This document shows positions 854 through 40,807 of a stretch of 64,000 nt of DNA, one piece after another. A program made the translations under genes and the position numbers. The first letter of the stretch is position 1. Each line of letters begins with the position of its first letter. The notes under the pieces were generated by a model. That model was not told the DNA's origin. It made no database searches and saw only the letters and a list, made by a program, of their open reading frames with translations. Origin of the DNA: Candidatus Uhrbacteria bacterium (GTDB lineage Bacteria; Patescibacteriota; Patescibacteriia; UBA9934; GWF2-40-263); assembly GCA_026395055.1 (NCBI GenBank), contig JAPLZK010000002.1, positions 56,940 to 120,939 on the forward strand, written 5' to 3'.

Positions 854-919
854 CGACTCGGAACTCCGAATCGCATCGAACCTTTTCCTGAGCTATCGAT
901 AAGGTATCGAGCTCTCAGG
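854..919 (+). promoter_or_regulatory. Island junction unit (IJU), variant
   Basis: Short hairpin cgactcgga/tccgaatcg, then CCTTTTCCTGAGC-tatcgataaggtatcga-GCTCTCAGG long hairpin. Followed by RBS agagg and the ATG at 948. Confidence 0.6.
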
Positions 920-947
920 TTGAGATACTTGAATCAAAGAGGTGAAC

Positions 948-1277
948 ATGGAGTTTATCATCGATACACTCATGAAGATCATGATTGGTGCGTTCGTGAT
1001 TGGAACGTTCACGACGCTCATGTTCTTGTTCAGTTACGGTTCGTTCAAACACAAACTCATTCTAGTCATGATTGTCCTCTACGGGATGTACTTCGAGCAA
1101 TTTCTTTCGATTATGAGTATGACAAGTTGCATTCTCCTTTTTCACCATCTTTCCGAGATCCCACTTCTTGAAAGGAAAATACGCAGATTGCCTGAGCGAG
1201 GAGAAGAGATACCAGGGTTGCCGGAACCGCATCCGCTCGAACTCATCTTTACGGTGGGGGTAGATCGGATCGCGTGA
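948..1277 (+). CDS. Small membrane protein (109 aa)
   Basis: ATG 6 nt after the agaggtgaac RBS. Two or three hydrophobic segments (IMIGAFVIGTFTTLMFLF, LILVMIVLYGMYF). Confidence 0.45.
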   Translation: MEFIIDTLMKIMIGAFVIGTFTTLMFLFSYGSFKHKLILVMIVLYGMYFEQFLSIMSMTSCILLFHHLSEIPLLERKIRRLPERGEEIPGLPEPHPLELIFTVGVDRIA

Positions 1278-1313
1278 GGAATGACCCATTGATTCGTAAA
1301 CGAACTTTTTTCT

Positions 1314-1379
1314 CGACGAGAAATATTTCTCGTCGCTTTTCCAGAGATCGCAAGCGAGTGCTTGTAGGATCTGAGAAAA
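1314..1379 (+). promoter_or_regulatory. Island junction unit (IJU)
   Basis: CGACGAGAAA-ta-TTTCTCGTCG hairpin, CTTTTCCAGAGA, gatcgcaagc/gcttgtaggatc stem, TCTGAGAAAA, then GGAGG RBS. Confidence 0.7.
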
Positions 1380-1396
1380 TTTCAATGGAGGTGTGT

Positions 1397-1897
1397 ATGT
1401 TTCGTAAATTGGTTTTTCTATCCGTGTGTTTTCTTGTTGTGTCATGTCGTCAGGCTGAATTGCCGGTACCCATGGTCAAGCAGAAAAGTTCTGTGAAAGA
1501 AATGCCTCCAAAAGTTTCGGCTGAACAAACGTACTTGTGTGATGAAACTTACACGATCGATTTTGCCAAATCGAAAAGCACAAATGTGAGCGATATGTAT
1601 GCGTGTCAGACTTCGATGGGCACAAGATTGCTTCCGGCTCGATACGGTGCGGCAGAAGTCTTGTTTACGCCAATTGCGCCATCTGGAACTCGATTCACGT
1701 TTCAGATTTTGACTCATGGCACAAATGCTATTGCTGTCATGGTGCACGGCAAACAAACATCGGTTCACGAAAACTTCCTTACCGGATCTTGTGGAGTATT
1801 TTCTACGAGTGGAGGAGTTGTCGGAAGCGATTACGTCGTTCTCGATTCGACGGTAACCACTGATAAGGTGAGCGTTAGGATTACTTGTGCTCTTTAG
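1397..1897 (+). CDS. Putative lipoprotein (166 aa)
   Basis: GGAGG RBS 5 nt upstream. Signal peptide MFRKLVFLSVCFLVVSC with a lipobox-like VVSC. Confidence 0.5.
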   Translation: MFRKLVFLSVCFLVVSCRQAELPVPMVKQKSSVKEMPPKVSAEQTYLCDETYTIDFAKSKSTNVSDMYACQTSMGTRLLPARYGAAEVLFTPIAPSGTRFTFQILTHGTNAIAVMVHGKQTSVHENFLTGSCGVFSTSGGVVGSDYVVLDSTVTTDKVSVRITCAL

Positions 1898-1911
1898 GCA
1901 TCCGCTTTCTC

Positions 1912-1978
1912 GGCGATGATTCTCATCGCCGCTTTTCCAGAGACTCCCATCAACAGGTGATGGGGTGATCTGCGAAAG
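1912..1978 (+). promoter_or_regulatory. Island junction unit (IJU)
   Basis: GGCGATGA-ttc-TCATCGCC, GCTTTTCCAGAGA, CCCATCA/TGATGGG stem, TCTGCGAAAG, then ATAAGGAGG. Confidence 0.75.
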
Positions 1979-1992
1979 ATAAGGAGGAAGAT

Positions 1993-2400
1993 ATGCGAAC
2001 GTTTCGATTGAAGTGGAAGAAGGGCGATGCGGAAACTGTGACGGGTCTGTTTCTCTCGGATGCGTTGAGCAATGCCGGTTACGGTCGAGGCGCGACGGAC
2101 GAACTCGAGACGTATCAACAAGTGATTTATCTCGCCGTCTTCGATCCGAATTCCCGGATCACGCAGATCGAGGAATTTTCGGAAGGGGCTGACAAGAAGA
2201 TGAACTTCGAAGTCATCGTCGGCGCAACACGCGTTGGACGAAGTGTTCAACTCACGTTCGACAATGGCACCGTGAAACGCATCAATGTCGGCGAGCACGG
2301 GCAGTTGATTTCGGGAAACGGATCGGGCGATTGCGTTTGCGCAGCGTTCGATTTGTATCGCGAAGCGGAAGAATGGGAAGAGGAGCAGATGGCGGAGTAG
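1993..2400 (+). CDS. Hypothetical protein (135 aa)
   Basis: AAGGAGG RBS. ORF fills the gap between junction units. No family recognised. Confidence 0.5.
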   Translation: MRTFRLKWKKGDAETVTGLFLSDALSNAGYGRGATDELETYQQVIYLAVFDPNSRITQIEEFSEGADKKMNFEVIVGATRVGRSVQLTFDNGTVKRINVGEHGQLISGNGSGDCVCAAFDLYREAEEWEEEQMAE

Positions 2401-2456
2401 TGAGACGCATCTCGGAAATACCAAGGATGTAAATTATCGCCAACAGATAAGGAGAC

Positions 2457-2750
2457 ATGATGCTGATCTTTTCACCAAGATGGTGGCAGAGGCGAAAGGG
2501 GGAGCGAATGCTCGCTCGTATTATGGAAGAAGTGGAAAAGTGCAAGTGCACAAAGAGTTTGATCGAAAGACAACTCGCGTTTGCACGTACGCACGGAATC
2601 GAACAGCAGATCAAGGAATGCGGAGAGATGCTTGCATTTCTGGAAATACAACTGCGCTTCAAACAGTTGGAGTATTTGGTTGTGGTGCAAGAACAGCACG
2701 CGAAAGCAACAAAGGGAATTTCCAGCTTGATAAACGCGAATCTCAAATGA
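2457..2750 (+). CDS. Hypothetical helical protein (97 aa)
   Basis: AAGGAGA immediately upstream. Second gene of a cassette (no IJU upstream). Start uncertain. Confidence 0.4.
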   Translation: MMLIFSPRWWQRRKGERMLARIMEEVEKCKCTKSLIERQLAFARTHGIEQQIKECGEMLAFLEIQLRFKQLEYLVVVQEQHAKATKGISSLINANLK

Positions 2751-2764
2751 TCGATCTGCCTTGA

Positions 2765-2835
2765 GAATATCTAAAAATATTTCCCAGGGCCTTTTCCAGA
2801 GATCCCGATCGAAGTGATCGAGCGATCTGAGAAAG
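2765..2835 (+). promoter_or_regulatory. Island junction unit (IJU)
   Basis: Weak AT hairpin, CCTTTTCCAGAGA, gatcg-rich stem, TCTGAGAAAG. Confidence 0.6.
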
Positions 2836-2899
2836 CGACCACCCCCTAACCCACTCCTTGTGAAGGATGGGGGAGATGGGTTCATACATAGAGGTGAAC

Positions 2900-3202
2900 A
2901 TGTTCGATCTGTTCGATCGGTGTTTGATTGCCGGCATCGTGCTTGCGGTTGGGGGGCTCGTCTTTCTGCGCAAGCGCGAACGGTCGGAAGAAATTGCGGA
3001 ACAGAATGCAGAGCCGGTGATCGAAGTGGATCATCGCCCGAGCGCTACCATCATCGAATTTCCGATGCATCGCCGGCCAATGTACGATTCGCTCCCTGGC
3101 TTTGGCTGGGAGGAAGCGGAGGTCATTGATCTTGCGGAGTGGAAATTGCTGCGTCTGCAACGGATGTGGGCTCTGCAAAATTCGCGTGAAGCGATTCTGT
3201 AG
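2900..3202 (+). CDS. Small single-pass membrane protein (100 aa)
   Basis: RBS agaggtgaac identical to the one before 948. TM segment CLIAGIVLAVGGLVFL. The ORF track starts at 2867. Confidence 0.45.
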   Translation: MFDLFDRCLIAGIVLAVGGLVFLRKRERSEEIAEQNAEPVIEVDHRPSATIIEFPMHRRPMYDSLPGFGWEEAEVIDLAEWKLLRLQRMWALQNSREAIL

Positions 3203-3217
3203 TTTGTTCTTTTTCTC

Positions 3218-3276
3218 GGCGAGAATCTTCTCGCCCCTTTTCCAGAGAACATGAGCGCTGGGCTTGTGAACTCTGA
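3218..3276 (+). promoter_or_regulatory. Island junction unit (IJU)
   Basis: GGCGAGAA-tc-TTCTCGCC, CCTTTTCCAGAGA, catgagc/gcttgtg stem closed by CAGAG/CTCTG. Confidence 0.7.
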
Positions 3277-3320
3277 CATAGGTACGAACAGACGTTCGGA
3301 GTTTCCGGACCAGGAGAAAG

Positions 3321-3644
3321 ATGCGCGACATTTTCTGTACGTTGTTTCTGGTGGTGCTCGCCGCGTTCCTTGTGCTCTCGTCGCACGGACAGCAGTTCAC
3401 GATGACCATCGGTTCGCACACGCTCAGCATGGGCGTCCAGCACTCGACGGCCAAGCTCGAAGCGCGCGTGGCGGAACTCGAAGCGGCGCAAGCGGCACAG
3501 GTGGTCGAAGAAGATGGTGAAGAAGAAGGGGAAGACGTTGTGGGCGAAAATGAAAACGTCTGCGATGTGGAAACCACCTGCTGTGCATCGAGTGAAGTGC
3601 AGATGACTTGCGCGTTCAACGAGGACGCGGAAGAAGAAGGTTAA
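3321..3644 (+). CDS. Secreted acidic protein (107 aa)
   Basis: RBS aggaga. Signal-like N-terminus MRDIFCTLFLVVLAAFLVLSS. Glu-rich C-terminal half. Confidence 0.5.
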   Translation: MRDIFCTLFLVVLAAFLVLSSHGQQFTMTIGSHTLSMGVQHSTAKLEARVAELEAAQAAQVVEEDGEEEGEDVVGENENVCDVETTCCASSEVQMTCAFNEDAEEEG

Positions 3645-3689
3645 TCAAAAAACGCCCGCGAGAAATCTCGTCGGCAAGAAGGAGAAAAG

Positions 3690-4022
3690 ATGAATTGGAT
3701 CAAGAAGAATCTGTGTTGGGCTACGTGGATCGCAATGTACGCAGCATTCCTGTTCACTTACATCGTACCGGTTGTCGGCTTTGCTTTGCAGATCATGATT
3801 TGCGTCGCGTGTTTCGCTCTGGAAAAGGTTTGGATCGATCATTCGGTTCAGGATCCACTTTCGTTCTTCCGGCGTTGCCCCATGTTCAGTGCGGCATTCC
3901 CCAGTTTTTTCATCGGGATCGTGGAAGTGAAATTCCACACGCCCGGTCTGCTGACACGCATGCTTTTTTTGCTCTTCTGCCTGTGGGTGGACAAAAAGGC
4001 GTTGAGTCAGAAGGCTGCGTAA
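3690..4022 (+). CDS. Multi-pass membrane protein (110 aa)
   Basis: RBS aaggaga. Three hydrophobic segments. Confidence 0.5.
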   Translation: MNWIKKNLCWATWIAMYAAFLFTYIVPVVGFALQIMICVACFALEKVWIDHSVQDPLSFFRRCPMFSAAFPSFFIGIVEVKFHTPGLLTRMLFLLFCLWVDKKALSQKAA

Positions 4023-4033
4023 CGTTCTTTCCT

Positions 4034-4102
4034 GTTCGAGCACATGCTCGAACCTTTTCCAGAGACTCTCACCGAACGGTTCGGTGGGGTGCTCTGCGGG
4101 AG
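4034..4102 (+). promoter_or_regulatory. Island junction unit (IJU)
   Basis: GTTCGAGCA-ca-TGCTCGAAC, CTTTTCCAGAGA, CACCGAAC/GTTCGGTG stem, CTCTGCGGGAG, then ACAACAAGGAGAAC. Confidence 0.75.
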
Positions 4103-4120
4103 TACAACAAGGAGAACATT

Positions 4121-4465
4121 GTGCGACAAGTGGAACAATCTAATGGTGTTCGTTATTTCGCGTGCGTGCTCGGCGTGCTCGCGACGCTCATTCTCATGGG
4201 TTGCTGCGGTGGCAACAGTGGAAATGCTGCGTCGGCTCCGCTTGCGTACAAGGCGACGTCGTCGTGTTTCACGCCGGCGAATTTCCGGGAGTCCTCGATG
4301 CAGAATACTGATTACAGCCTGGAGCTGTGCGAATATTCCGTTGAGAAGGATGAACACTATGCTCGTACTTGTTTTGCGAGTCGTAACCCGAATTGGCAAA
4401 GTGCCACGACGTTCTCGGTCCCGTGTGCGGACTTTGACGCGATCAAGAAGATCACCGGAAATTAA
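4121..4465 (+). CDS. Putative lipoprotein (114 aa), GTG start
   Basis: AAGGAGA 5 nt before the GTG. Signal peptide with LILMGCC lipobox. Four further Cys. Confidence 0.45.
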   Translation: MRQVEQSNGVRYFACVLGVLATLILMGCCGGNSGNAASAPLAYKATSSCFTPANFRESSMQNTDYSLELCEYSVEKDEHYARTCFASRNPNWQSATTFSVPCADFDAIKKITGN

Positions 4466-4501
4466 ACGCCCGCCCGAGGTTGGGTCGGCACGGAGGTTTG
4501 C

Positions 4502-4843
4502 GTGAAGAATTTTGGAGCGTTCATTGGTGCAATCGGCGGCGCATCCGCGGCGGGTCTTTGGCATCATTTCAATCCGGATACAGGATTTGGTGTGCTCTTG
4601 CTCTGTTCGATGGTCGGCGGCGGCGTCGTGGCGATCATGTGGCTTGCCCTTGTGTATCACCTGAATATTCCACAGGTTCCAAAGCCGAGTCGTGCAGAGT
4701 TGTTCGAAGCAACGCGTGTGGAACTCGAACGTCAGATTGCGGAAGCGACGGAAGCGTGCGGGTCTGAACATGCGGATGCTGTGTACGACTTGCGCAAGGA
4801 GCTCAACGCGTTCAATTACCTGAGCGATCGCCTGAGCTTTTAG
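4502..4843 (+). CDS. Membrane protein (113 aa), GTG start
   Basis: GGAGG RBS. Gly/Ala-rich TM segments followed by a helical tail. Confidence 0.5.
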   Translation: MKNFGAFIGAIGGASAAGLWHHFNPDTGFGVLLLCSMVGGGVVAIMWLALVYHLNIPQVPKPSRAELFEATRVELERQIAEATEACGSEHADAVYDLRKELNAFNYLSDRLSF

Positions 4844-4854
4844 TTCTTTTTCTC

Positions 4855-4921
4855 GCCCGAGTTTCTTCGGGCCTTTTCCAGAGATCCTCACCGAACGGTT
4901 CGGTGGGGTGCTCTGAGGAAG
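4855..4921 (+). promoter_or_regulatory. Island junction unit (IJU)
   Basis: GCCCGA-gtttct-TCGGGC, CTTTTCCAGAGA. Same CACCGAAC/GTTCGGTG stem as at 4034. CTCTGAGGAAG. Confidence 0.75.
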
Positions 4922-4944
4922 TTTTACAACAGGAGAACATCCGA

Positions 4945-5526
4945 ATGGATTTCAAGTATACGTTCGACGGTCAGTTGACGGGTTGGAGATGGAAACTCGT
5001 TCTCATCGCGATCTTCGCCATCTTTGTGTACGAGGCGACGGGACAATCTCCTGCGCTTGCGTTCTTGGCGGTCGTGATTCCGGGAGTCATCCTCTTCTCG
5101 CGCATCAGCTTCAAAGCGAAGAGTGATCTGGGTGTGATCGATATCCGTCCGGACACGCCGACGAAATTTCGTTTGCATCTTCCGGAGGAATTGAGCGTAT
5201 CGATTCGGGCATCTGCATTCGTGGAGCCAGATCCGCGTCAAGATCGTATCGACGAACTCGAATCCGAATTGGAGGACGCGGACAGCGAACTCGAAGATGC
5301 GGATTCGGAATGGGAGGATGCAAAAAGCGAACTCGAAGATGCAGAATCGGAAGTGCGAGATGCACAAGATGAACTGCGTCGGGTCGAGGAAGAGCGCGGT
5401 TCACATTTGGTAAATGTTTCCGAATACGCATCGAAGCGTGCGGAAGCGCAGGCAAAGAAAGACAGAATCGAAGCGGAGCTTGCGAAAGCACGCGAGCCGA
5501 ATGCCGAGAATACGACCATCACCTGA
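4945..5526 (+). CDS. Membrane-anchored acidic coiled-coil repeat protein (193 aa)
   Basis: RBS caggagaac. Two TM segments, then the ELESELEDADSELEDADSEWEDAKSELEDAESE repeats. Confidence 0.5.
   Translation: MDFKYTFDGQLTGWRWKLVLIAIFAIFVYEATGQSPALAFLAVVIPGVILFSRISFKAKSDLGVIDIRPDTPTKFRLHLPEELSVSIRASAFVEPDPRQDRIDELESELEDADSELEDADSEWEDAKSELEDAESEVRDAQDELRRVEEERGSHLVNVSEYASKRAEAQAKKDRIEAELAKAREPNAENTTIT
5254..5375 (+). repeat. In-frame tandem ~24-bp repeats (SELEDAxx units)
   Basis: agcgaactcgaagatgc(g/a)ga(t/a)tcggaa recurs. Encodes an acidic heptad-like repeat. Confidence 0.6.
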
Positions 5527-5595
5527 TCTTGTTGATCGGGAGTGATGTACAACCAGCGTTTCTCAACAATCCCAATCGGGATGGAGGCAGTGTTC

Positions 5596-6081
5596 ATGAT
5601 TCCATTGCTCGTTTATCTCGTCGTCACGTTCTTCTTGAACCACATCGTCGCGCAAGTGAATCTGTCTCGCGTGGCGGAGCATCCGGTTCGGAAATCAGGT
5701 TTCTTGCTCGATGTTGCGACGTTCTGTGCGGTTCTTCTGCGCGTGCCGTTCTACCTGTTCGGCATCGTGGTCTACAGCCTGTGCTGTATCGGCACAATCA
5801 TCGCGGCAGCCGCGGATTTCATTCCGGAATACACCATGACACTTTGGATCTACGTGCTTGCCGATAACCTCGGCTACGCGTCCTATGCGTTTCGTGCGCT
5901 TCTCGTGAAGGAATTCCATTTCCTGCAGAGCTTTGCAGCAAGTTCGTGGGCCATCACCTACTACGATTTTCATCTCACCTACGATACACGAGTGTTCTCG
6001 TTTCTCGTGTCGCCGCAAAAGGGATATCGTTCGCACAGTATTGCGCCCGAGCTTGTTGCTCGGCGCAAAATCAACACCTAG
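5596..6081 (+). CDS. Multi-pass membrane protein (161 aa)
   Basis: ggagg lies 8 nt before this ATG (MIPLLVYLVV...). ORF track start 5542 is possible. At least 4 hydrophobic segments. Confidence 0.45.
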   Translation: MIPLLVYLVVTFFLNHIVAQVNLSRVAEHPVRKSGFLLDVATFCAVLLRVPFYLFGIVVYSLCCIGTIIAAAADFIPEYTMTLWIYVLADNLGYASYAFRALLVKEFHFLQSFAASSWAITYYDFHLTYDTRVFSFLVSPQKGYRSHSIAPELVARRKINT

Positions 6082-6097
6082 ACATAGGGAGTCTGTC

Positions 6098-6229
6098 ATG
6101 CAAGTGATGTATTTTCTCGGTAACGCAATGAATGTGGTGATCGTCGGTGGTCTCTTGGTTTCCGCCGTCGTCATTCCACGTGATCTACTGCGTGGCGCGT
6201 TCAGTCGCAGCGCGCAGCGCAAAGCGTAA
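6098..6229 (+). CDS. Small TM peptide (43 aa)
   Basis: gggag RBS 6 nt upstream. Single TM segment NVVIVGGLLVSAVVI. Short, so tentative. Confidence 0.3.
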   Translation: MQVMYFLGNAMNVVIVGGLLVSAVVIPRDLLRGAFSRSAQRKA

Positions 6230-6250
6230 TTCGACAACGTTCTTTCTCTT

Positions 6251-6316
6251 GGCGAGAATCTTCTCGCCTCTTTTCCAGAGACTCACATCGATGGATGATG
6301 TGGTGATCTGCGAAAG
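6251..6316 (+). promoter_or_regulatory. Island junction unit (IJU)
   Basis: GGCGAGAATCTTCTCGCC, TCTTTTCCAGAGA, CACATC/GATGTG stem, TCTGCGAAAG, then ATAAGGAGG. Confidence 0.75.
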
Positions 6317-6330
6317 ATAAGGAGGTTCCG

Positions 6331-6954
6331 ATGCGGGATTTGGAAGCGATGTATCTTGAACACTTGGCGTTCGTGCGTGCGAATCTTGCGCTGCTCGGCG
6401 TTGAGGATCCGGAAGTGATGATTGCGTTTCGTGTAACGGATCAACGGCATAAACAACCGGACCGAATGATTACGTTCGATCTTTCTCTCTCAGAAGCACT
6501 ACATCACGAAGTGTGTTGTGCATGGCGATCATTTTTCGCCCCGCGATGGCCGGAGGAAACGACTTACAAGCCTGAAGTGCAGATGAATGGGGAATTGTTC
6601 GGGTATCTTGATTCGTCAGGATTCCGTTACAAAGATCCGCCTTCGCTCAGGCTTGCCCTTGCGTGGATGATTGTTGCCAGGTGGGAAAATCCACCGTTTC
6701 TGTTTGATCTTGATAAGGCTGTGAGTGTTCTTGCTGCCGTAGTTGCCGAAGGTGTGACCGAAGAGATCTTTGTGATGAAGTGGCTTCCAGCCCTGAAACA
6801 CGTTTTCGCGTTGCAACCCGGGATGACTGTTCGGGATGGTTATCGATCGTCCGAGGTGTATCTCTGGCGTGTAGCAACAAAAGATGTGTACGGCGAATCA
6901 CACCCTGGGTATCCAGGACGTGTGGAGCCGTGTTATCTGTTGCGTGTTCTTTGA
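6331..6954 (+). CDS. Hypothetical cytoplasmic protein (207 aa)
   Basis: Strong RBS. No signal peptide. No family recognised. Confidence 0.5.
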   Translation: MRDLEAMYLEHLAFVRANLALLGVEDPEVMIAFRVTDQRHKQPDRMITFDLSLSEALHHEVCCAWRSFFAPRWPEETTYKPEVQMNGELFGYLDSSGFRYKDPPSLRLALAWMIVARWENPPFLFDLDKAVSVLAAVVAEGVTEEIFVMKWLPALKHVFALQPGMTVRDGYRSSEVYLWRVATKDVYGESHPGYPGRVEPCYLLRVL

Positions 6955-6961
6955 AGCGTTT

Positions 6962-7020
6962 GGCGAGAATCTTCTCGCCTCTTTTCCAGAGACAACAAAC
7001 AGGTTGTGGTCTCTCAGAAG
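6962..7020 (+). promoter_or_regulatory. Island junction unit (IJU)
   Basis: GGCGAGAATCTTCTCGCC, TCTTTTCCAGAGA, GAGACAAC/GTTGTGGTCTC stem, CTCAGAAG. Confidence 0.7.
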
Positions 7021-7073
7021 GTTACAGACAGCATCAGTTGCATGCGACCATCCGTCGTTTGCTTGGAGGAAGT

Positions 7074-7367
7074 ATGGCGTTACCGATCATTGGGTATCTC
7101 GCGCGTTCCGATTGGGAAGATCCCGAGGACAGCGTCGTTGTCGCGATCGAAGATTGCGCGGAACCACAAGTGTTCCGTGTGCTTGCCGCAGAATGGTGTG
7201 CGAAAGAAAACACTGTTCACGTTGTGACCAGGTGGATGCGCGGAAAAGCGCCGATCAAAGTTCGCCTTGGCGAATCCGCCGTTGACTCGATGGCGGAATG
7301 TAGTCTCAAGTTCTGTGCGACGGAAGCTCTGGCCATCGAATGGCTGGGGACACAGTCGCAGTCGTAG
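7074..7367 (+). CDS. Hypothetical protein (97 aa)
   Basis: tggagga RBS 4 nt before the ATG (MALPIIGY...). The longer ORF 6780-7367 overlaps the previous gene and the IJU. Confidence 0.45.
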   Translation: MALPIIGYLARSDWEDPEDSVVVAIEDCAEPQVFRVLAAEWCAKENTVHVVTRWMRGKAPIKVRLGESAVDSMAECSLKFCATEALAIEWLGTQSQS

Positions 7368-7388
7368 GTTGTTTATCGTTCCTTTCTT

Positions 7389-7455
7389 GGCGAGAATCTT
7401 CTCGCCCCTTTTTCAGAGATCAAGAGTGAATGGCATTTGTGGTTTCTGTCAGAAG
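7389..7455 (+). promoter_or_regulatory. Island junction unit (IJU), weaker stem
   Basis: GGCGAGAATCTTCTCGCC, CCTTTTTCAGAGA ... TTTCTGTCAGAAG. Confidence 0.6.
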
Positions 7456-7484
7456 TGTTTCGTTGTTTTGTACAGGAGGGAAAG

Positions 7485-7649
7485 ATGGCACTGTTGGCTT
7501 TCATTGCAGGATGTTTCGCGGGTTCGATCATGTTTGTCGTCGCATGCGGTCTCCTTGGATACCGGATGATGCGCTCGGTCATGAAGGGGCAGAAGCCTCG
7601 TCTCGATCGTCCCGACGTGAAATATACGTTTCCGAACAAAAAGGAATAA
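7485..7649 (+). CDS. Small TM protein (54 aa)
   Basis: AGGAGGG RBS. TM segment MALLAFIAGCFAGSIMFVVACGLLG. Confidence 0.4.
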   Translation: MALLAFIAGCFAGSIMFVVACGLLGYRMMRSVMKGQKPRLDRPDVKYTFPNKKE

Positions 7650-7651
7650 TC

Positions 7652-8020: not shown

Positions 8021-8031
8021 GGTTTTTTCTT

Positions 8032-8063: not shown

Positions 8064-8071
8064 GATGATGG

Positions 8072-22085: not shown

Positions 22086-22270
22086 GGCACATGTCGCCCG
22101 GAAAACGGACGGGAAACGCTTGACATAATCCGGATCCGCGACTAGGGTGCTGTATTGTTCTTTCTTGCTGGCGAATGGCTTTGAGAAGATTCTGTGAATC
22201 TTTTGAAAGCCGTTCGTCATCAGGGTGTTCCTGAAGTTGCCGTGCGGTGGTTCTCACAAGGAGTATTTCC

Positions 22271-23655: not shown

Positions 23656-23660
23656 GTTGC

Positions 23661-25537: not shown

Positions 25538-25542
25538 CTCTT

Positions 25543-25626
25543 CGTAGAGGAGGGGATTTACTTCTCCTCTACGAAATCTTTTTCCTGACTTGAAACGTGT
25601 ACACAAAATTTGTGCACGCATTTCAG
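25543..25626 (+). promoter_or_regulatory. Island junction unit, W variant
   Basis: cgtagaggag...ctcctctacg hairpin, TTTTTCCTGA, long imperfect hairpin gaaacgtgtacacaaa/tttgtgcacgcatttc, TTTCAGA. Confidence 0.6.
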
Positions 25627-25688
25627 ATCATGAATCTGAATCGAACAAAGGGTTCGAGGAACGTTCTTCACAACACAGGAGTCAGCAC

Positions 25689-26636: not shown

Positions 26637-26649
26637 TTCCAATTTCTTT

Positions 26650-26731
26650 GTAGGGGAGGGTGACTATTCTCCCCTACACCATTTTTTCCTGAACTGAAAT
26701 ATCTATTCGATCATCGAATGTATATTCCAGG
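26650..26731 (+). promoter_or_regulatory. Island junction unit, W variant
   Basis: gtaggggag...ctcccctac hairpin, TTTTTTCCTGAA, long imperfect hairpin ending TTCCAGG. Confidence 0.6.
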
Positions 26732-26819
26732 TCATGAATCTGGTTCTGTTATCGAGGGTTCGATTCCAGAAGTGTCTCATATTCCGATTTCGATCGGAAG
26801 TACACAAGGTAGGTGTCTC

Positions 26820-27794: not shown

Positions 27795-27806
27795 GTTCTT
27801 TCTTCT

Positions 27807-27870
27807 GAGGTTCAACGGGAACCTCCTTTTTTACAAGTGATGATCACAGGGATGATTGCTTCTAGAAAAG
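27807..27870 (+). promoter_or_regulatory. Island junction unit
   Basis: GAGGTTC-aacg-GGAACCTC, CTTTTTTACA, tgatgatca/tgattgc stem, TAGAAAAG, then GGAGGAG RBS. Confidence 0.7.
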
Positions 27871-27891
27871 TTCTAGCTTCGGAGGAGTCCT

Positions 27892-34534: not shown

Positions 34535-34559
34535 GGGATCCCTCCGATGGAAACTTGAA

Positions 34560-34622
34560 CTTTCTCATGAACATTCATCGCGTTGATGACCGTTCATGTA
34601 AAAGGGCGATCACGTGATCGCC
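34560..34622 (-). promoter_or_regulatory. Island junction unit, V type
   Basis: Minus-sense GGCGATCACGTGATCGCC, CTTTTACA, TGAACGGTCATC-aacgc-GATGAATGTTCA, TGAGAAAG, then GGAGGG RBS. Confidence 0.8.
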
Positions 34623-34629
34623 GAGGATG

Positions 34630-35646
34630 TTAGACCGGGAGGTCTGTAATAAAGGGGGTGTTGTTGCGGCCCAGGTTCGCGCTCCCGAAGTCAAAAATCT
34701 GAGCAGAATGATCTCCGGCACTACGAGAGCAAAATGGAATGTGGTTTGCCGTGTTTGTCATGAGATATCGCCCAAGGTCAAACAAACACATACTTGTTAC
34801 CGGCTTTACGAATCCGCCCATGTCAAACAAGATTTTTCCATCCGGGATCTGTACGGCCAGGATGTAGTTTGGATTTTTCGTTGAGACAAGAATGGTTTCG
34901 TTATTCACGACAAGCAAATCTTCGAGCTCAATTCCGTGATTGATAACGATCCGTTTTTCGTCTCGACGATCAAGAACAATTCGATCTGGAAGAAGAAAAA
35001 TCCATGTTCTGTCTTGGGTCCACGCACCTTTTTGAATTCCATTTTCAAGAGGAGGATCTTGTCTCATGCAGATCCAGTTATTCCCCGTATCTCCAAACAG
35101 CTGAATATATGCACCACATGTCGAGAGAAACATGGATGGATTTGTGGAAGGAATAATTCCTGAGAATGAACAGTGCTGTTGTTCTTGGTGGACGACGACG
35201 TGTTTCTGTCCATCCCATGTCATTACACAGATGAGGCCAGATTGAGTGATGAATGCAATCAAATCATCCACTAAGATTGTCAGGTAGGTTGGACCGTTGA
35301 TATGAATGGGGTTTGTTCCGCGTGCATGCTCGTAGAGCAATTTCATTTGTTTAAATTTGTTTTCTTGCCATTCAAGAAAGAAAATTTTTCCGAGCGGTGT
35401 CGTTGCATACAAACGTTCGCCATTTTTTGACCATTGTAGTGTCTTAAATGAGAAACTTTGTATGTACGGTTTGCACAGTTCTTTTTCAGTTTGTGGGTTG
35501 AAAAAGTGAATGGCAGTGAAGTCGTGCTCTTGTTTTCCCATGCAAGCAAGTGTTTGCTCGTCTGGTGAGAGAGTAAGATGTGTAATCGGGTCACGATTAT
35601 TACTCAGCAACAAACGATGAGCAGGCTCTCGAATAAGATCGGACAT
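34630..35646 (-). CDS. WD40-like beta-propeller paralog 2 (338 aa)
   Basis: Same N-terminus (MSDLIREP) as paralog 1. Tail IFDFGSANLGRNNTPFITDLPV. Confidence 0.65.
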   Translation of the reverse strand: MSDLIREPAHRLLLSNNRDPITHLTLSPDEQTLACMGKQEHDFTAIHFFNPQTEKELCKPYIQSFSFKTLQWSKNGERLYATTPLGKIFFLEWQENKFKQMKLLYEHARGTNPIHINGPTYLTILVDDLIAFITQSGLICVMTWDGQKHVVVHQEQQHCSFSGIIPSTNPSMFLSTCGAYIQLFGDTGNNWICMRQDPPLENGIQKGAWTQDRTWIFLLPDRIVLDRRDEKRIVINHGIELEDLLVVNNETILVSTKNPNYILAVQIPDGKILFDMGGFVKPVTSMCLFDLGRYLMTNTANHIPFCSRSAGDHSAQIFDFGSANLGRNNTPFITDLPV

Positions 35647-35671
35647 GGGATCCCTCCGATGGAAACTTGAA

Positions 35672-35734
35672 CTTTCTCATGAACATTCATCGCGTTGATA
35701 ATCGTTCGTGTAAAAGGGCGATCACGTGATCGCC
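35672..35734 (-). promoter_or_regulatory. Island junction unit, V type
   Basis: Nearly identical to 34560-34622, including the leader and RBS. Confidence 0.8.
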
Positions 35735-35741
35735 GAGGATG

Positions 35742-36725
35742 TTAGACCGGGAGGTCTGGAATGAGCGCGGTTGGTTTGCGGCCAAGGTTTGGGCCGCCGA
35801 AGTCAAGGACGCGCGGCCACTTTTCATAGTCTTGTCGTACGGCGCGTGCTCGCTCTTTGCTTGCGGCAATGAGGTAGCGATTTTCTTCGCCATAGACACA
35901 GACGGAGGAAATGCCGCCTGCGAATCCGCCGATCTGTTTTTGCACAACCATCTCAGGAAACTGAGCGATCACGAGTCCTGTTGTTGTTCCGACCGCGAAT
36001 GTTTTGTCATCTACTTTTGTTAGACAAAGAACGGGCTGTTCAAGTTTCAGGAATGGAGCGTCTTTTACAGAACGCACAGATCCGTCTTCGCATCCGGTGA
36101 GAAGTGTTTCTCCCATCCAGAGAAGACTGTTCACTTGTGCTTCTTCTTTTCGTTCACGTGCATCGCGAACAAGTCGTCGTTGCAGAGCTTGTTCGTAGTC
36201 TGTGGCGTCGTAGACCATGATTCCGTTTTTCACAGAGCTTGCAGCAAGATGTGTGCCGTCTTCATTGAATACAAGCATGTTGCAATCACACTTTTGATCT
36301 CCAAGATCGACATTTGCTTCGTTGCGTACATGTATGACGTTGTTGTACATGCTTGCAATGAGATTTTTTGCGGAAACAGCCGCGCTTGGAATAGCCGTGT
36401 CTTGTGGAGAAAAGACTCGAGCGCTTTTCCATGCTTGTGTCGGGTCGTCCGGTCGTGGCCAGGATAGGGTTGATGCTCCATCACTTGTGATGAGACGATC
36501 ACCTTTTTTGTTCCAGGCAACGGTATGAACATCACTTTGATGACCATCCAGAATTTTGACGACTTCACCCGTTTCCGGATTCCAAATATGGACTCGTGGA
36601 TCTCCACGATTACCCGCGCCGGCAATCAGCTTTTGATCAGGCGACAGCGCAAGTTGCCACACGTCGTGGTTGTGTCCACCAAGGACGCGCGCAATTTTCG
36701 GATCTGGGATCTCTTGGTCTGCCAT
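35742..36725 (-). CDS. WD40 repeat beta-propeller paralog 3 (327 aa)
   Basis: Canonical WD signatures (GGHNHDVWQLALSPDQKLIAGAG...VHIWN, LDGHQSDVHTVAWN). Tail VLDFGGPNLGRKPTALIPDLPV. Confidence 0.75.
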   Translation of the reverse strand: MADQEIPDPKIARVLGGHNHDVWQLALSPDQKLIAGAGNRGDPRVHIWNPETGEVVKILDGHQSDVHTVAWNKKGDRLITSDGASTLSWPRPDDPTQAWKSARVFSPQDTAIPSAAVSAKNLIASMYNNVIHVRNEANVDLGDQKCDCNMLVFNEDGTHLAASSVKNGIMVYDATDYEQALQRRLVRDARERKEEAQVNSLLWMGETLLTGCEDGSVRSVKDAPFLKLEQPVLCLTKVDDKTFAVGTTTGLVIAQFPEMVVQKQIGGFAGGISSVCVYGEENRYLIAASKERARAVRQDYEKWPRVLDFGGPNLGRKPTALIPDLPV

Positions 36726-36750
36726 GAAGCACCTCTATTGAAAGAAAGAA

Positions 36751-36812
36751 ACTTTCTCACGAACGTTCATCACTCGATGACGATTCGTGTAAAAGGGCGA
36801 TCACGTGATCGC
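36751..36812 (-). promoter_or_regulatory. Island junction unit, V type
   Basis: GGCGATCACGTGATCGCC, CTTTTACA, CGAATCGTCATC-gagt-GATGAACGTTCG, TGAGAAAG. Confidence 0.8.
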
Positions 36813-36820
36813 CAAGCGTG

Positions 36821-37900
36821 CTAGACCGGAAGTTCTCCAATGAGCGGAATGGGCATACGACCAAGGTTTGGATTTCCAAAGTCGTAGATAGCGGGAGAGA
36901 ATTTCATATAACCCGTATCGTCTTGCGTGTGCGAGTCGCTCGTAATCATGAAGCGACCATTTCCGTACAGGAGAATGGAACGCAGATCCTGAAACCCTTT
37001 GAGGGAGTAGAGGATTTTCATGTCCGGCAGTCGCACAATCCGCAGTTCGTCCTTCCCGTTTTTTCGAATACTCAGGATGAGTGTCTGTGCATCCACAAGA
37101 CAAAATGTGTTGAGATGATCAATGTCTGTGCGTGCGTCATAGAGGTTGTTTGCGATATTCGAATGAATACCAATCTTCCCTCCATCCGATGCAGAAACAA
37201 GGACGTCCTCGGTGAGCCAATCAATTTCTTCGATCGGTCCATTATCTGTTTTGAAAGCGGGGCCGGCCTGTTCCAGTTCGCTTTCAGAAGCAGAGAGGAT
37301 GCACAACTTTGCCCCTATGCTTACAGCAAGTTTGTTGCCATTCGGAGAAAAGGTAAGGAGTCGGATTCCTCCATCGTATTTTTTTCGATGAAGGAGTTTT
37401 GGTCGCGAACCCTTTGTAAGGCGGAAGATCCAGATGTGGTTATTTTGGGCTGCAGCAAGAAAGCCTGATGAAGAAACAGCGACGGTCGTAAACTTATTTG
37501 TCGATGTGCCGCCGTATCCATTGTGTTCAGACGTCGTGTTTTGGACTCGTTTTATTACCCATTCTCCACGACCAGGTTTTTGCCAAAACCATCTGGACTC
37601 TTGCCAAGAAATAACATCTCCGGAAAGGTCTGCAAGAAAAACGGTCTGTCCATGTGTGGACCAAGCGATTCCATCTTTTGCAACAGACGCTGATCGCTCT
37701 TCGTTTTTGTGCAGATCCAATCGTCGCAGAATAGTGCCCGTTGCAACATCCCACATGTGAACTTCTTCATCTTCTCCTGCGCCAATCAGACGTTGTTCGT
37801 CCGGAGAGAGGGCAAGGTGATTGAGAACAGTCGTTCTGCCTTCAAGTCGACGGATCAGTTTTGGTGCGGGGATTTTGATGTCTTCGGTGACGGGTTCCAT
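36821..37900 (-). CDS. WD40-like beta-propeller paralog 4 (359 aa)
   Basis: LNHLALSPDEQRLIGAGEDEEVHMWD. Tail IYDFGNPNLGRMPIPLIGELPV. Start at MEPVTEDI after the aagagg RBS. Confidence 0.7.
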   Translation of the reverse strand: MEPVTEDIKIPAPKLIRRLEGRTTVLNHLALSPDEQRLIGAGEDEEVHMWDVATGTILRRLDLHKNEERSASVAKDGIAWSTHGQTVFLADLSGDVISWQESRWFWQKPGRGEWVIKRVQNTTSEHNGYGGTSTNKFTTVAVSSSGFLAAAQNNHIWIFRLTKGSRPKLLHRKKYDGGIRLLTFSPNGNKLAVSIGAKLCILSASESELEQAGPAFKTDNGPIEEIDWLTEDVLVSASDGGKIGIHSNIANNLYDARTDIDHLNTFCLVDAQTLILSIRKNGKDELRIVRLPDMKILYSLKGFQDLRSILLYGNGRFMITSDSHTQDDTGYMKFSPAIYDFGNPNLGRMPIPLIGELPV

Positions 37901-37930
37901 GCGTAAGACCTCTTGGGTGAAAGGAACGGA

Positions 37931-37993
37931 CTTTCTCATGAACGTTCATCGCGCTGATGATCGTTCGTGTAAAAGGGCGATCACGTGATCGCC
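37931..37993 (-). promoter_or_regulatory. Island junction unit, V type
   Basis: GGCGATCACGTGATCGCC, CTTTTACA, CGAACGATCATC-agcgc-GATGAACGTTCA, TGAGAAAG. Confidence 0.8.
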
Positions 37994-38006
37994 GAGAGGA
38001 AGGAAC

Positions 38007-40721
38007 TTATGCTTCACCAACATTACGGTCGATGAGAGCGGGATTGATTTCTGGAATAGGATCGGAACCTGCCGGCAAACCACGGAGCATGCGAAGCGCA
38101 CGCTCGATTTCATCCTTCACATTTTCTGGGAGAAAAAGTTTGGACGAGCAGTTTTGAATGGCAAGCAGGGTCATGCGTGCAATCTCTACCACAGATGCGG
38201 AAGGAAGATAATCTTCGATCGCACCCGTGAGAGCTTTTTCATTGATGTTTCCACCGCCGAATTGGTCTGCACGGCGAACCAAGACTTCAATGTCCGCACC
38301 GGTCAGTCCGTCCGTCTTTTCCGCAAACGTTCCGAAGTCGGTCAGAGGAGACTCGAATCCGTAACGCTTGATCATGACGGGGAACAGTCGGGTGCGTGTT
38401 TCCTGGTCTGGCATCAGAATCGGGATGCGATCGTCGGTTCGGCCCGCGCGCTTGAGGGCGCCGTCGAGCAGATCCGGACGATTAGTTGCACTCACGACAA
38501 AGATGCGTCCGCGGATGGTTGGATCCGAAAGGAACTGCATCATCGCCTGACGAACGCGATTGCTCACGCCCGAGTCGCCTTGATATCCATCGCGTCCATT
38601 GTCTTCTTGATCCACTTCGTCACGAAACCAGACGAGTGGTGCAAGCGCACGCAGGGCGATGAACAATTGTTCCATCTTTTGTTCCGTCTCTCCGACCCAC
38701 TTGGAACGGATCGGACGGGTTTTCACAAGGAGCACACCCGCTTCATGTGCAAGTGCGGTTGCAAGCGCGCTTTTGCCCGTCCCCGGAGGTCCCATCAAAA
38801 GGCAACCCATCGGGACACGACGTGCGTCTCCTGCGAGCATGGCGTCGCGCACGCGGATGAAATATTCTTTCACGCCATCGAGTCCGGCAACACCATCGAA
38901 TCCATACGGAGGCCGCTCGATCTCAAGGAGGTCGCCGTATGTTTTGGTGAGAAGAGCGATGCGACGTGATGTGACTTCCACGGCCGACAGGTCTTGTGTG
39001 TTCGCGCTCGCTTCCCGAAAGAGGGTTGTGAGATCGCGATACCCAAGGTTCCCTGTGAGTTGCGTCAGTGACCGAATGCCGATGGTTGGTGTGGGGAACG
39101 GATTGCGCGCGGTCATGTTTTGCATCATGACACGAATGCTTTCCGCTTCTTTTTCCAACTGCTTGATGTCTGGTGTGGATGGATGATCGTGAGAGGCTTG
39201 TAGATCTTGTTTGGTGCTCTCGCAAGCTTTCTTGTATTTGTTGATTTCCGCACACACCGCTTGTGTTTGCTTTTTGATCTGTTCTTGGAGCGCATCCATT
39301 TCCGCTTGGATTTGTTGCACCACCGTATTTTTGTTCTGCTGAATGCCATCAAACCGCTTGCGAGATTCCGCAAGGGTCGTTTCAAGTCGACTCCGTTCGC
39401 CACGCTGAAGCGTGTATTCGAATTGTGTGTCGAGCATGATCCGTTTTGGGGAATCACTTTTGTGCAGACGACAGACGAGTCCGCCGCTCGCAGACCAGTT
39501 GAAGTACACCGGAAGACCTTGTGCATTCAACCACGGATTATCATCCGTGAGCTTTGTCAGACGAACATCTCCGTCCGCATCTGCATCACTCATGACACGC
39601 GTTGTCTGAATTTTTCCATCCGTTGGACTTCTGAGCGTGATCAAATCATTTGTCAGAAGGGTTTGCCAACGCGAGGAGTTCAGAAATTGCGGTTGCAGTT
39701 CCGGATCTTCACGCAATCGATGTTCGAGTTGCGAGATCTGTGTTCGCAAGGACGTGATTTCTTGCTCGAGCGCGGACGCACCACTTGCAAGGTGTGCGGT
39801 CATGCGTGCTTGCGCACTTTCGAGGGATTTCTGTCGCGCTTGGATATCAACGCTTTCTTGAACAAGCGCGGCTCCTTGTCGATTGAGTTCGGCAAGTTGT
39901 TCGTCTTGGAGAAGAATTTGTTGATGGATCCGTTGCTGTTCTGCCTGACGCAAAACGTTCAGACGTGCTTCGAGTCTATTGAGTTCTTCTTGCTTCATGC
40001 TCGTCTCATCTGTGAGAGATGAAATGAAACGCAGACGCTCTTCTTCATCGGGTGGCATGATCGTGATGGGCACGATCGGACTTTCCGGACGACGAAGTCG
40101 TTCGGGAAGCGCACTCAACGTTCGAGCACTCATGAGCATCAGATGTCCTGCACGTGCGAAACGATCATTTTCTGCGATGCGCATGACAAGCAGGGCAATG
40201 CGTTCCGTCGCGCGGTCCGTTCCACCGAGGGCACCTGAGCACACGGCGTCAAAGTCCGGCATGATCGCAATGCATCGTCCGACTTTTGCTTTCTTGTCCG
40301 ACGCAACCGATGTTGCCTGGTCAAAAACTTTGTGCATGAGACCAAGGGCTTCCAGTGGTTCTGTCGGAAGAGGCATTTCTGATTGAAGGGCTAGCGCGGC
40401 TTTTTCTGCAGGAGTCAACGCTCCTGCTGGAGGAGCTTCTCCATTTGCGAGCGCGCGAAAGCGCTGTTCCATGGAAGGTTTTTTCTCATCCGTGGATTTC
40501 GGGAACCGAAACCCAAGAGCGGGATCAAAGAACCACAGAATATCGATTTCTTGCACGTGCAAGCGTCGTGAAAGGGCTTTGTGCCACGTATCCAGTCGAT
40601 CAACCGGATCTGTTTCTGCGCTCCGTTCGAGCAAAGGAAATCCATCACTCACGGAACCAGTGAACAAAAACGCGCGAGTACCTTCTTTGAGCCGTTTTTC
40701 AAATTCTTGAATCCAACGCAT
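38007..40721 (-). CDS. Large AAA+ ATPase (904 aa): degenerate N-domain, long coiled coil, C-terminal classic AAA module
   Basis: Walker A LLMGPPGTGKSALA, Walker B VWFRDEVDQ, SATNRPDLLDGALKRAGRTD (second region of homology). About 250 aa of heptad-rich sequence in the middle. Start at MRWIQEF after AGGAGG. Confidence 0.8.
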   Translation of the reverse strand: MRWIQEFEKRLKEGTRAFLFTGSVSDGFPLLERSAETDPVDRLDTWHKALSRRLHVQEIDILWFFDPALGFRFPKSTDEKKPSMEQRFRALANGEAPPAGALTPAEKAALALQSEMPLPTEPLEALGLMHKVFDQATSVASDKKAKVGRCIAIMPDFDAVCSGALGGTDRATERIALLVMRIAENDRFARAGHLMLMSARTLSALPERLRRPESPIVPITIMPPDEEERLRFISSLTDETSMKQEELNRLEARLNVLRQAEQQRIHQQILLQDEQLAELNRQGAALVQESVDIQARQKSLESAQARMTAHLASGASALEQEITSLRTQISQLEHRLREDPELQPQFLNSSRWQTLLTNDLITLRSPTDGKIQTTRVMSDADADGDVRLTKLTDDNPWLNAQGLPVYFNWSASGGLVCRLHKSDSPKRIMLDTQFEYTLQRGERSRLETTLAESRKRFDGIQQNKNTVVQQIQAEMDALQEQIKKQTQAVCAEINKYKKACESTKQDLQASHDHPSTPDIKQLEKEAESIRVMMQNMTARNPFPTPTIGIRSLTQLTGNLGYRDLTTLFREASANTQDLSAVEVTSRRIALLTKTYGDLLEIERPPYGFDGVAGLDGVKEYFIRVRDAMLAGDARRVPMGCLLMGPPGTGKSALATALAHEAGVLLVKTRPIRSKWVGETEQKMEQLFIALRALAPLVWFRDEVDQEDNGRDGYQGDSGVSNRVRQAMMQFLSDPTIRGRIFVVSATNRPDLLDGALKRAGRTDDRIPILMPDQETRTRLFPVMIKRYGFESPLTDFGTFAEKTDGLTGADIEVLVRRADQFGGGNINEKALTGAIEDYLPSASVVEIARMTLLAIQNCSSKLFLPENVKDEIERALRMLRGLPAGSDPIPEINPALIDRNVGEA

Positions 40722-40745
40722 CAGACACCTCCTGTAAGGAACAAA

Positions 40746-40807
40746 CTTTCTCATGAGCATTCATCACTCGATGATCGCTCGTGTAAAAGGGCGATCATGT
40801 GATCGCC
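40746..40807 (-). promoter_or_regulatory. Island junction unit, V type (palindrome variant CATG)
   Basis: GGCGATCACATGATCGCC, CTTTTACA, CGAGCGATCATC-gagt-GATGAATGCTCA, TGAGAAAG, then AGGAGG. Confidence 0.8.

Follow-up and report, generated by a model that had tools for sequence, protein, structure and literature searches.

A GC hairpin placed just past a stop codon within an operon, as in the REP/BIME elements of malEFG or the hairpins of the puf operon, is expected to protect the upstream segment of the message and to grade expression along its length, and at the RNase III signals of phage T7 the hairpin left over at the 3' end can stabilise the upstream message. Bacterial RNase III cuts the polycistronic precursor of the T7 early mRNAs at five processing signals; a helix of 22 bp is its ideal substrate, and loops or mismatches at the target site result in the cleavage of one strand only (PMC3867540). 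In T4-type phages, the composite motif known as PeSL is repeated between small variable genes, and the breakpoints of indels and replacements lie within the motif (PMC2839356, PMC4122927). Here, we describe a unit of two adjacent hairpins that recurs between genes of Candidatus Uhrbacteria, analysed in a DNA stretch of 64,000 nt (the window, whose positions serve as coordinates) in which every candidate site was read individually. The unit is a structure-conserved, sense-strand, intercistronic two-hairpin module. It is best filed with the known intercistronic terminator/processing modules, with a PeSL-like cassette behaviour in addition, as the closest fit.

Like the T7 early RNase III signals of the R0.3-R1.3 type, the Uhrbacteria sites are intercistronic, lie on the sense strand, form irregular hairpins roughly two helical turns long whose lower and upper stems are parted by an internal loop, and occur in several copies per polycistronic unit. 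Unlike them, each site follows a separate terminator-like hairpin that contributes its U tract to the base of the second hairpin, the lower stem is strongly conserved, and the host is a cellular genome of the candidate phyla radiation (CPR) and not a phage; cleavage is proposed here by analogy. With PeSL the unit shares a short composite motif with a terminator stem-loop, set between small, variable and mostly unknown genes, as well as the breakpoints within the motif, whereas PeSL holds a strong sigma-70 promoter and the Uhrbacteria unit, in a bacterial host, has a covarying second RNA hairpin instead. As in the REP/BIME and puf hairpins, a GC hairpin stands just past the stop codon within an operon, but unlike REP/BIME the unit is bipartite, keeps one fixed orientation and has a second hairpin sharing the U tract. 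Overall, we give about an even chance to the reading that the unit is a cis-acting, sense-strand RNA element punctuating polycistronic transcripts in Candidatus Uhrbacteria.

From 5' to 3', the unit consists of the stop codon, a pyrimidine box, a GC hairpin (H1), four to six U, a long imperfect hairpin (H2), a Shine-Dalgarno sequence (SD) and the start codon, and the folding of whole-unit RNAs yielded two adjacent hairpins. The pyrimidine box, GTTCYTTYC, begins 0-10 nt past the stop codon, often as TAGTTCC; it stands ahead of nine units, in agreement with a preliminary description of this stretch, which had reported the post-stop box (ac)GTTCTTTCTC. H1 comprises 7-18 bp (-10 to -28 kcal/mol) and begins 12-40 nt past the stop codon. 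H2 begins 0-2 nt after H1, and the U run forms the 5' strand of the H2 base, CUUUUCCAGA pairing with UCUGNGAAAG. In the main family (A), the lower stem pairs C-UUUU-(C)-CAGA with UCUG-(C/A)-GAAAG, so that the sharing of the U tract by both hairpins, proposed from the sequence of this stretch before, was reproduced by folding. The mismatch at a constant position, also noted before, is real: family A has a conserved, symmetric 3x3 internal loop (G12 A13 Y / N G A, with tandem G.A) and, in the lower stem, a C.C or C.A mismatch. The top of H2 is a freely covarying upper stem of 8 bp with a loop of 3-8 nt, and the SD and start codon follow 12-80 nt downstream.

The total length of H2 is 45-50 nt in 37 of the 39 distinct copies, with 5+1+4+3+8 = 21 stacked positions in family A and 20 in the family of the minus strand (CUUUUACA...UGAGAAAG), which has an A.A mismatch where the main family has its own. 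The minus-strand and middle-block families have no sequence in common with the main family, but the design is kept, with the U tract as the H2 base; in the middle block these bases are UUUUUUA/UAGAAAA at 27827-27869 and UUC/GAA at 26686-26738. The unit is modular, being composed of box, H1, H2 and an optional third hairpin.

This third hairpin, GCC(C/T)GCGA-loop-TCG(T/C)CGGC, is small and conserved and is followed immediately by an A-rich stretch and a GGAG SD. It was observed in the syntenic array L047 (1793-1846, 2682-2729, 5908-5953 and 7675-7728), in the window at ~7034-7062, and in L006, L008 and L009 (in the last after the unit at 7102), either alone in short spacers or after H2 in longer units, and it looks like a separate module of the 5' untranslated region (5'-UTR). 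An alternative third hairpin, GTAATAGACGGGGTCCCCTGACCCCGC, was found after H2 in L012 (units 7507, 5804 and 4857), L009 (5090-5130) and L047 (3136-3309). Additionally, tandem H1-type hairpins, a long one of GTTCGA type and then GCCTCGACAATATTCCGCAAGAATATTCGTCGGGGC, precede CTTTTCCAGAGA in L006 (1087-1200) and L041 (1200-1304).

The two-hairpin structure is genuine, and selection acts on it in the sense strand. In an alignment of 32 distinct copies of H2, 95% of the cells were paired and compensatory changes occurred in all 8 of the 8 upper-stem pairs, with a covariation score of 0.375 versus 0.129 in shuffled alignments (0/500 shuffles as high), whereas only 34-56% paired in a control where the partners were slid by 1-3 columns. 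The long family of H1 behaved similarly (23 copies, 91.6% paired, 9/13 pairs with compensatory changes, 0/500 shuffles as high). These cell counts overstate the independent events, because many copies are related by duplication. The lower stem of H2 was fixed by the search pattern in the copies found with it, and it covaries in copies from outside that pattern, namely CCGGA/UCCG in L047 and, in place of CUUUU/GAAAG, UCC/GGA in a second syntenic array, L048. Moreover, G.U outnumbers A.C by 31:13 in the H2 upper stem and by 22:6 in H1, which argues that it is the gene-sense strand that folds; the covariance model of H2 scored 48-67 bits on the sense strand and at most 21 bits on the antisense strand. 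The covariation from which an RNA structure had been proposed earlier was thus seen in both hairpins, among copies of this genome and of others. On the antisense side, a stem-less match to the H2 model (CTTTTCCAGAGCG...GATCTGCAAAG, 3784-3828 on the minus strand, 18 bits, E 0.009) sits inside the plus-strand gene 3690-4022 and is probably due to chance or a decayed remnant.

Within the window we recognised 18 full units, 10 on the plus strand at 827-7484 (block 1), three sequence-divergent ones on the plus strand at 25538-27891 (middle block) and five on the minus strand at 34535-40814. The preliminary description had counted 19 copies in three blocks on both strands; the blocks and strands stood, and the nineteenth copy is probably a partial relative at 22157-22225. 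Its counts of two palindromes were exact, GGCGAGAATCTTCTCGCC occurring four times (3218, 6251, 6962 and 7389) and GGCGATCACGTGATCGCC four times (34605, 35717, 36796 and 37976), the latter with a further one-mismatch copy at 40790; none of either would be expected by chance. The motif CTTTTMCA was enriched four-fold (23 found versus 5.7 expected), and all the stems quoted earlier are present: CCCATCA/TGATGGG (1932), CACATC/GATGTG (6270), CACCGAAC/GTTCGGTG (4054 and 4873) and GAACGGTCATC/GATGAATGTTC (34604). The units and two related features are as follows.

827..947 (+), unit 1: box GTTCCTTTT at 830-838; long H1 at 846-881 (GTTTGATACGACTCGGAA...ATCGAAC); H2 at 882-924 (CCUGAGCU variant); next start at 948.
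1300..1396 (+), unit 2: H1 at 1314-1336 (CGACGAGAAATATTTCTCGTCG); H2 at 1335-1379, closing with GAGAAAA; next start at 1397; 48.2 bits.
1898..1992 (+), unit 3: H1 at 1911-1932 (GGCGATGATTCTCATCGCC); H2 at 1931-1978; next start at 1993; 66.7 bits.
2751..2896 (+), unit 4: weak H1 at 2758-2791; H2 at 2790-2835; next start at 2897 (or 2876); 63.4 bits.
3203..3320 (+), unit 5: box at 3206-3217; H1 at 3218-3235 (GGCGAGAATCTTCTCGCC); divergent H2 at 3236-3281; next start at 3321; 17.1 bits.
4023..4120 (+), unit 6: box at 4024-4033; H1 at 4034-4053; H2 at 4053-4102; start GTG at 4121 (matching the L045 gene call); 52.6 bits.
4844..4944 (+), unit 7: box at 4843-4854; H1 at 4855-4872; H2 at 4872-4921; next start at 4945; 60 bits.
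6230..6330 (+), unit 8: box at 6239-6248; H1 at 6251-6268; H2 at 6269-6316; next start at 6331; 65.3 bits; left breakpoint of the 207-aa cassette indel.
6955..7073 (+), unit 9: H1 at 6962-6979; H2 at 6980-7021; third hairpin at ~7034-7062; next start at 7074; 17.7 bits; right breakpoint of the 207-aa cassette indel.
7368..7484 (+), unit 10: box at 7378-7386; H1 at 7389-7406; H2 at 7407-7455; next start at 7485; 28.5 bits.
25538..25688 (+), unit 11, divergent family: H1 at 25541-25575, then U5; H2 at ~25582-25634; further small hairpins; next start at 25689.
26637..26740 (+), unit 12, divergent family: H1 at 26650-26677, then U6; H2 at ~26686-26738.
27795..27891 (+), unit 13, divergent family: box at 27795-27803; H1 at 27807-27825, then U6; H2 at 27827-27869 (UUUUUUA/UAGAAAA); next start at 27892.
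40722..40814 (-), unit 14: H1 at 40790-40807 (GGCGATCATGTGATCGCC); H2 at 40746-40790 (CUUUUACACGAGC...GCUCAUGAGAAAG); probable AAA+ gene start at 40721.
37901..38006 (-), unit 15: box GTTCCTTCC at 37998-38006; H1 at 37976-37993; H2 at 37931-37976; next start at 37900.
36726..36820 (-), unit 16: H1 at 36796-36813; H2 at 36752-36796; next start at 36725.
35647..35741 (-), unit 17: H1 at 35717-35734; H2 at 35672-35717; next start at 35646.
34535..34629 (-), unit 18: H1 at 34605-34622; H2 at 34560-34605; next start at 34534.
22157..22225 (+), partial relative: box GTTCTTTCT and one long hairpin, in a 5'-UTR directly after a TTGACA promoter, without H1 and without U tract.
61576..62271 (+), rnc: RNase III domain and dsrm domain (dsRBD) by Pfam; candidate trans-acting enzyme.

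Every unit of the window lies between two co-directional open reading frames (ORFs) and is co-oriented with them, with a TTTT run 27-66 nt past the stop codon and an SD-led start 60-92 nt further. When six sources were considered (the window, L012, L039, L009, L011 and L041), almost every unit was found 27-96 nt past a co-directional stop codon, with an SD-led start usually within ~130 nt. Operon ends bear ordinary T6-8 terminators, not units. The minus-strand block begins with a TTGACA-17-TAATGT promoter and closes with a T6 terminator, and in the middle block a canonical promoter and a terminator stand at the same places; the earlier statement that units lie inside operons with a head promoter and a tail terminator therefore stands for these two blocks, the head of block 1 lying beyond the window.

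A promoter inside the units was considered and rejected, as the preliminary description had also argued: our promoter scan found no conserved sigma-70 promoter in them, sigma-70-like sites were not enriched in the blocks (11 versus 19 expected, and 8 versus 13 expected), and the required positions vary freely. Promoters of the sigma-54 and extracytoplasmic function (ECF) types were discarded as well, with a consensus that misfits by eye and a spacing between the conserved blocks that is too long and too variable. These results bear on the view that the unit is a PeSL-like terminator-promoter cassette, where H1 would stop the upstream transcript and an adjacent promoter would start the next one with H2 as its 5' hairpin. 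Its layout and indel behaviour do resemble those of PeSL (PMC2839356, PMC4122927), and one weak sigma-70-like site (6231-6259) and a GAGAAT within the GGCGAGAAT hairpins might be taken for promoter elements. However, besides the lack of enrichment, the would-be -35 and -10 regions (H1 and the H2 upper stem) are those that change freely, the conserved blocks are 24-28 nt apart at variable spacing, and canonical TTGACA/TATAAT promoters occur in this genome only at operon heads, so that we regard this view as very unlikely.

In the punctuation model, H1 and its short U tract would act as a leaky intrinsic terminator, and H1 would also serve as the protecting hairpin of the 3' end of the upstream cistron. 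In read-through transcripts H2 would form and be bound by a factor specific for double strands, for which RNase III is the most plausible candidate; cleavage may separate the cistrons, or H2 may act as a 5' stabiliser of the downstream cistron, and each gene would obtain a dosage and a half-life of its own. The rnc gene announced earlier at 61576 was confirmed, and the size of H2 (~20-21 stacked positions, with an internal loop or mismatch) matches the irregular RNase III substrates of two helical turns. The proximal- and distal-box rules for RNase III sites were defined for the E. coli enzyme. By analogy with the T7 signals, RNase III specifically may be the processor of H2, to which we assign about half of the weight given to the punctuation model as a whole. 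With regard to H1, a terminator scan caught that of seven units (6251, 6962, 7389, 34605 and the three of the middle block), and the middle-block H1s, followed by U5-6, are among the best-ranked terminator-like sites of their region.

Some observations weigh against this model. The U tract is only CUUUU(C/A)C or CUUUUUC in 15 of the 18 units, most of which fail the criterion of at least five T used in the scan, and units with four U are sub-canonical beside the T6-8 terminators of the operon ends. In addition, the 5' strand at the base of H2 (CUUUUCCAGAGA) shows stronger conservation than pairing by itself would need, which points to a sequence-specific partner and is atypical of RNase III; the conserved post-stop box is not accounted for by punctuation; covariation shows a folded single strand, which on this evidence alone may also be DNA; and recent duplication inflates the cell counts mentioned above.

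Since CUUUUCCAGAGA and the G.A loop are conserved to an extra degree, a dedicated binding protein is conceivable. H2 could accordingly be the operator of a sequence-specific RNA-binding protein that would recognise the conserved lower stem together with the tandem G.A loop, either a translational repressor or a processive antiterminator of the put/nut/EAR type that would allow read-through of the next H1. Such an operator would suit the nearly invariant CUUUUCCAGAGA and G-A/G-A loop beneath an upper stem free to vary, the terminator-like H1 ahead of every H2, the presence of nusB, and a box GTTCYTTYC that by eye resembles boxA. Nevertheless, no candidate protein was identified, antiterminator RNAs are normally single and promoter-near and do not follow every gene, and the minus-strand and middle-block families keep the architecture without the sequence or the G.A loop, meaning that a single sequence-specific binder does not account for all units. 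We consider this explanation rather unlikely.

A different role for the post-stop box was explored as a translational-coupling device, where the box, imitating the 3' end of the 16S rRNA (CCUCCUUUC), would pair with the SD or with GAAAG and the terminating ribosome would melt the pairing. In 33 of 45 units, the minimum free energy (MFE) fold contains a three-way junction that is closed by pairing of the box region with the SD region, and the position of the box 0-10 nt past the stop codon, often within TAGTTCC, would be suitable. Yet the box-SD duplex (-7.9 kcal/mol) was no better than those of shuffled boxes (-8.5) or random 25-mers, and pairing of the box with the GAAAG strand (-4.9, versus -4.7 and -5.0 in controls) was no better either. 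Both the anti-SD pairing and the alternative box-GAAAG conformation were rejected on these energies, and the device as a whole appears highly improbable.

Genome contigs and metagenome contigs were each scanned once for relatives with the pattern CTTTTCCAGAGA-N18-48-TCTGNGAAAG. Both scans detected the unit, in several Candidatus Uhrbacteria metagenome-assembled genomes (MAGs) as well as on metagenome contigs, frequently in numerous copies on one contig, as in L012 (eight in 8 kb) and L039 (five in 2.9 kb); the IMG/VR viral contigs gave no match to the exact pattern. A covariance model of H2, as had been proposed in the preliminary description, separated true units in relatives (42-72 bits) from chance pattern matches (25-35 bits); in the window it retrieved 9/10 units of block 1 (missing unit 1, the CCUGAGCU variant) and, weakly, the five of the minus strand. 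The arrays L047 and L048, fetched via a homologous protein and not via the pattern, carry the CTTTTCCAGAGA base too, and the arrays stand at a conserved chromosomal position adjoining SMC and DHH genes. One array protein matches a Candidatus Uhrbacteria MAG protein, encoded on a 339-kb contig, with 100% identity, which places the window in that lineage; exact look-ups of two proteins of the window returned no record. The unit is a lineage-wide element of Candidatus Uhrbacteria, specific to that lineage so far.

In line with the earlier remark that the motif matched no known RNA family, a scan of the whole window against Rfam 15 at gathering scores matched only three tRNAs, and a permissive scan of 800-8100 gave only three chance-level matches (E at least 2). 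Searches of the literature on Uhrbacteria, CPR and Patescibacteria for intergenic, terminator, RNA motif and integron revealed no description of the element. A hammerhead or other ribozyme and a riboswitch were discarded (no Rfam match up to E 5; CUGAGA...GAAA is contiguous, with no stem II), as was a kink-turn, since the loop with the tandem G.A is symmetric (3x3) and has no bulge. A phage origin was also rejected, there being no match to the exact pattern in IMG/VR and no phage, integrase or transposase domains in the 40 window proteins scanned with Pfam. Taken together, the structure, the location and the absence from Rfam put forward in the preliminary description hold, and its interpretation is partly supported; the lineage-wide occurrence, the modularity and the cassette indels described below were points absent from that account.

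The units may alternatively be viewed as selfish or neutral repeats akin to REP/BIME or MITE elements, hairpins that spread between genes and are tolerated after stop codons whose effect on RNA would be incidental. Many copies per genome, identical H1 copies clustered in one array, copies falling into discrete sequence families, and presence that differs between syntenic arrays would all be expected of such repeats. On the other hand, the units are always in a single orientation relative to the genes and always between stop and SD, and their stems diverge yet keep pairing, a sign of purifying selection on structure and not of recent copying. Furthermore, Pfam scans of 40 proteins of the 64 kb window revealed no Y1 transposase, RAYT-like gene or other transposase, and no terminal inverted repeats or target duplications were seen. 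We regard selfish repeats as unlikely.

A comparison of window positions 1-8400 with the syntenic array L047, whose protein P0005 is 73% identical to that of the window, uncovered two cassette indels at the units. In the first, window 6282-6959, carrying unit 8's H2, a gene for 207 aa and unit 9's box, has no L047 counterpart; both flanks align to one 32-nt stretch of L047 (H1 and CTTTTxCAGAGA), where a single unit combines the 5' flank of unit 8 with the H2 and third hairpin of unit 9. In the second, window ~850-2790 (four genes and three units) is absent from L047, whose unit at this place has the box of unit 1 and, after a different H1, the H2 of window unit 4. Between the window and L047, H2 thus stays linked to the gene downstream of it and the box to the gene upstream, as parts of a 5'-UTR and of a 3'-UTR would be predicted to do; H1 can be swapped. 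The arrays are mosaics that differ in content from genome to genome, and some spacers that hold a unit in one genome are unit-free spacers of 9-24 nt in another. The four WD40 genes of the minus-strand block are tandem gene-plus-unit repeats. The shared junction of 30-35 bp (H1 and CTTTTCCAGAGA), present in direct repeats, is thus also a recombination substrate at which genes and units are gained, lost and duplicated.

These indels raise the question of an integron-like cassette system, in which a recombinase would cleave and religate the folded H2 or H1, thereby moving a gene together with its unit. Like attC sites, the unit has an imperfect hairpin whose base is conserved and whose top varies, with certain fixed positions left unpaired, separates small promoterless genes of one orientation and bounds cassettes; the small same-strand genes, the promoter seen only at the array head, the conserved position beside SMC and DHH, the two indels that break inside units and the gene-plus-unit duplications of the WD40 genes would all fit. 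Unlike attC, the unit has two hairpins and a U tract and lacks RYYYAAC/GTTRRRY, the H2 base being CTTTTCCAGA/TCTGNGAAAG and the H1 base GTTCGAC/GTCGAAC with GTT outermost. Moreover, attC folds on the bottom strand, but the G.U bias of the unit is in favour of the coding (top) strand, and units also stand between large genes in ordinary-looking operons. No integrase lies nearby: the Pfam scans of the 40 window proteins found no recombinase, integrase, transposase or phage domain, and the gene calls of L047 and L048 included no integrase, transposase or phage gene. The breakpoints, within 32-nt identical stretches on both sides of H1, fit homologous recombination better than a fixed site-specific crossover. 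An integron-like system is therefore, in our opinion, quite unlikely. We attach the same low probability to a variant in which the units are junctions of an integrase-independent (or unknown-recombinase) cassette system, carrying expression signals and exchanging cassettes of surface-protein genes; if true, tiny-genome episymbionts would have a dedicated means of reshuffling their surface repertoire.

Regarding the genes joined by the units, the minus-strand operon at 33518-42149 encodes a protein of 173 aa, a radical SAM protein and an AAA+ ATPase of ~904 aa whose N-terminal region is unique, together with four WD40 beta-propeller paralogues in tandem. The ATPase (917 aa as queried) had one close relative, of 904 aa and encoded on a 3.9-kb contig, in 5.8 billion proteins. 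In the middle block (22247-29277), four large proteins without Pfam match are followed by an adenylosuccinate-synthetase-like protein (27892-29277), all joined by divergent units. A 28-nt, partly palindromic repeat, TTTAGTATGTGTATAAYCTACACTTAGT, occurs at 22058-22085 and 23671-23698, each copy directly after a TTGAC(G/A) -35-like hexamer and containing a TATAAY -10-like site, with a second TTGACA promoter-like site ~100 nt downstream; it may be an operator for one of the TrmB-type regulators of the window. Palindromes CCCCTCCTT...AAGGAGGGG were also noticed at gene ends (8090-8109, 8542-8561 and 29315-29335), GGAGGGG being found 10 times versus 2.8 expected.

Almost nothing is known of the gene expression signals of CPR, because these bacteria are uncultured. 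In this context, the unit is a well-supported structured RNA candidate with both helices covarying over dozens of independent copies, and it appears to be a lineage-wide operon punctuation mark. Its design is unusual, since in three sequence-unrelated families a terminator-like hairpin lends its U tract to the base of a second, conserved hairpin. Finally, as junctions that bound cassette indels in arrays of small membrane-protein and lipoprotein genes, the units suggest a way in which these reduced genomes may vary their surface repertoire with the expression signals left intact.

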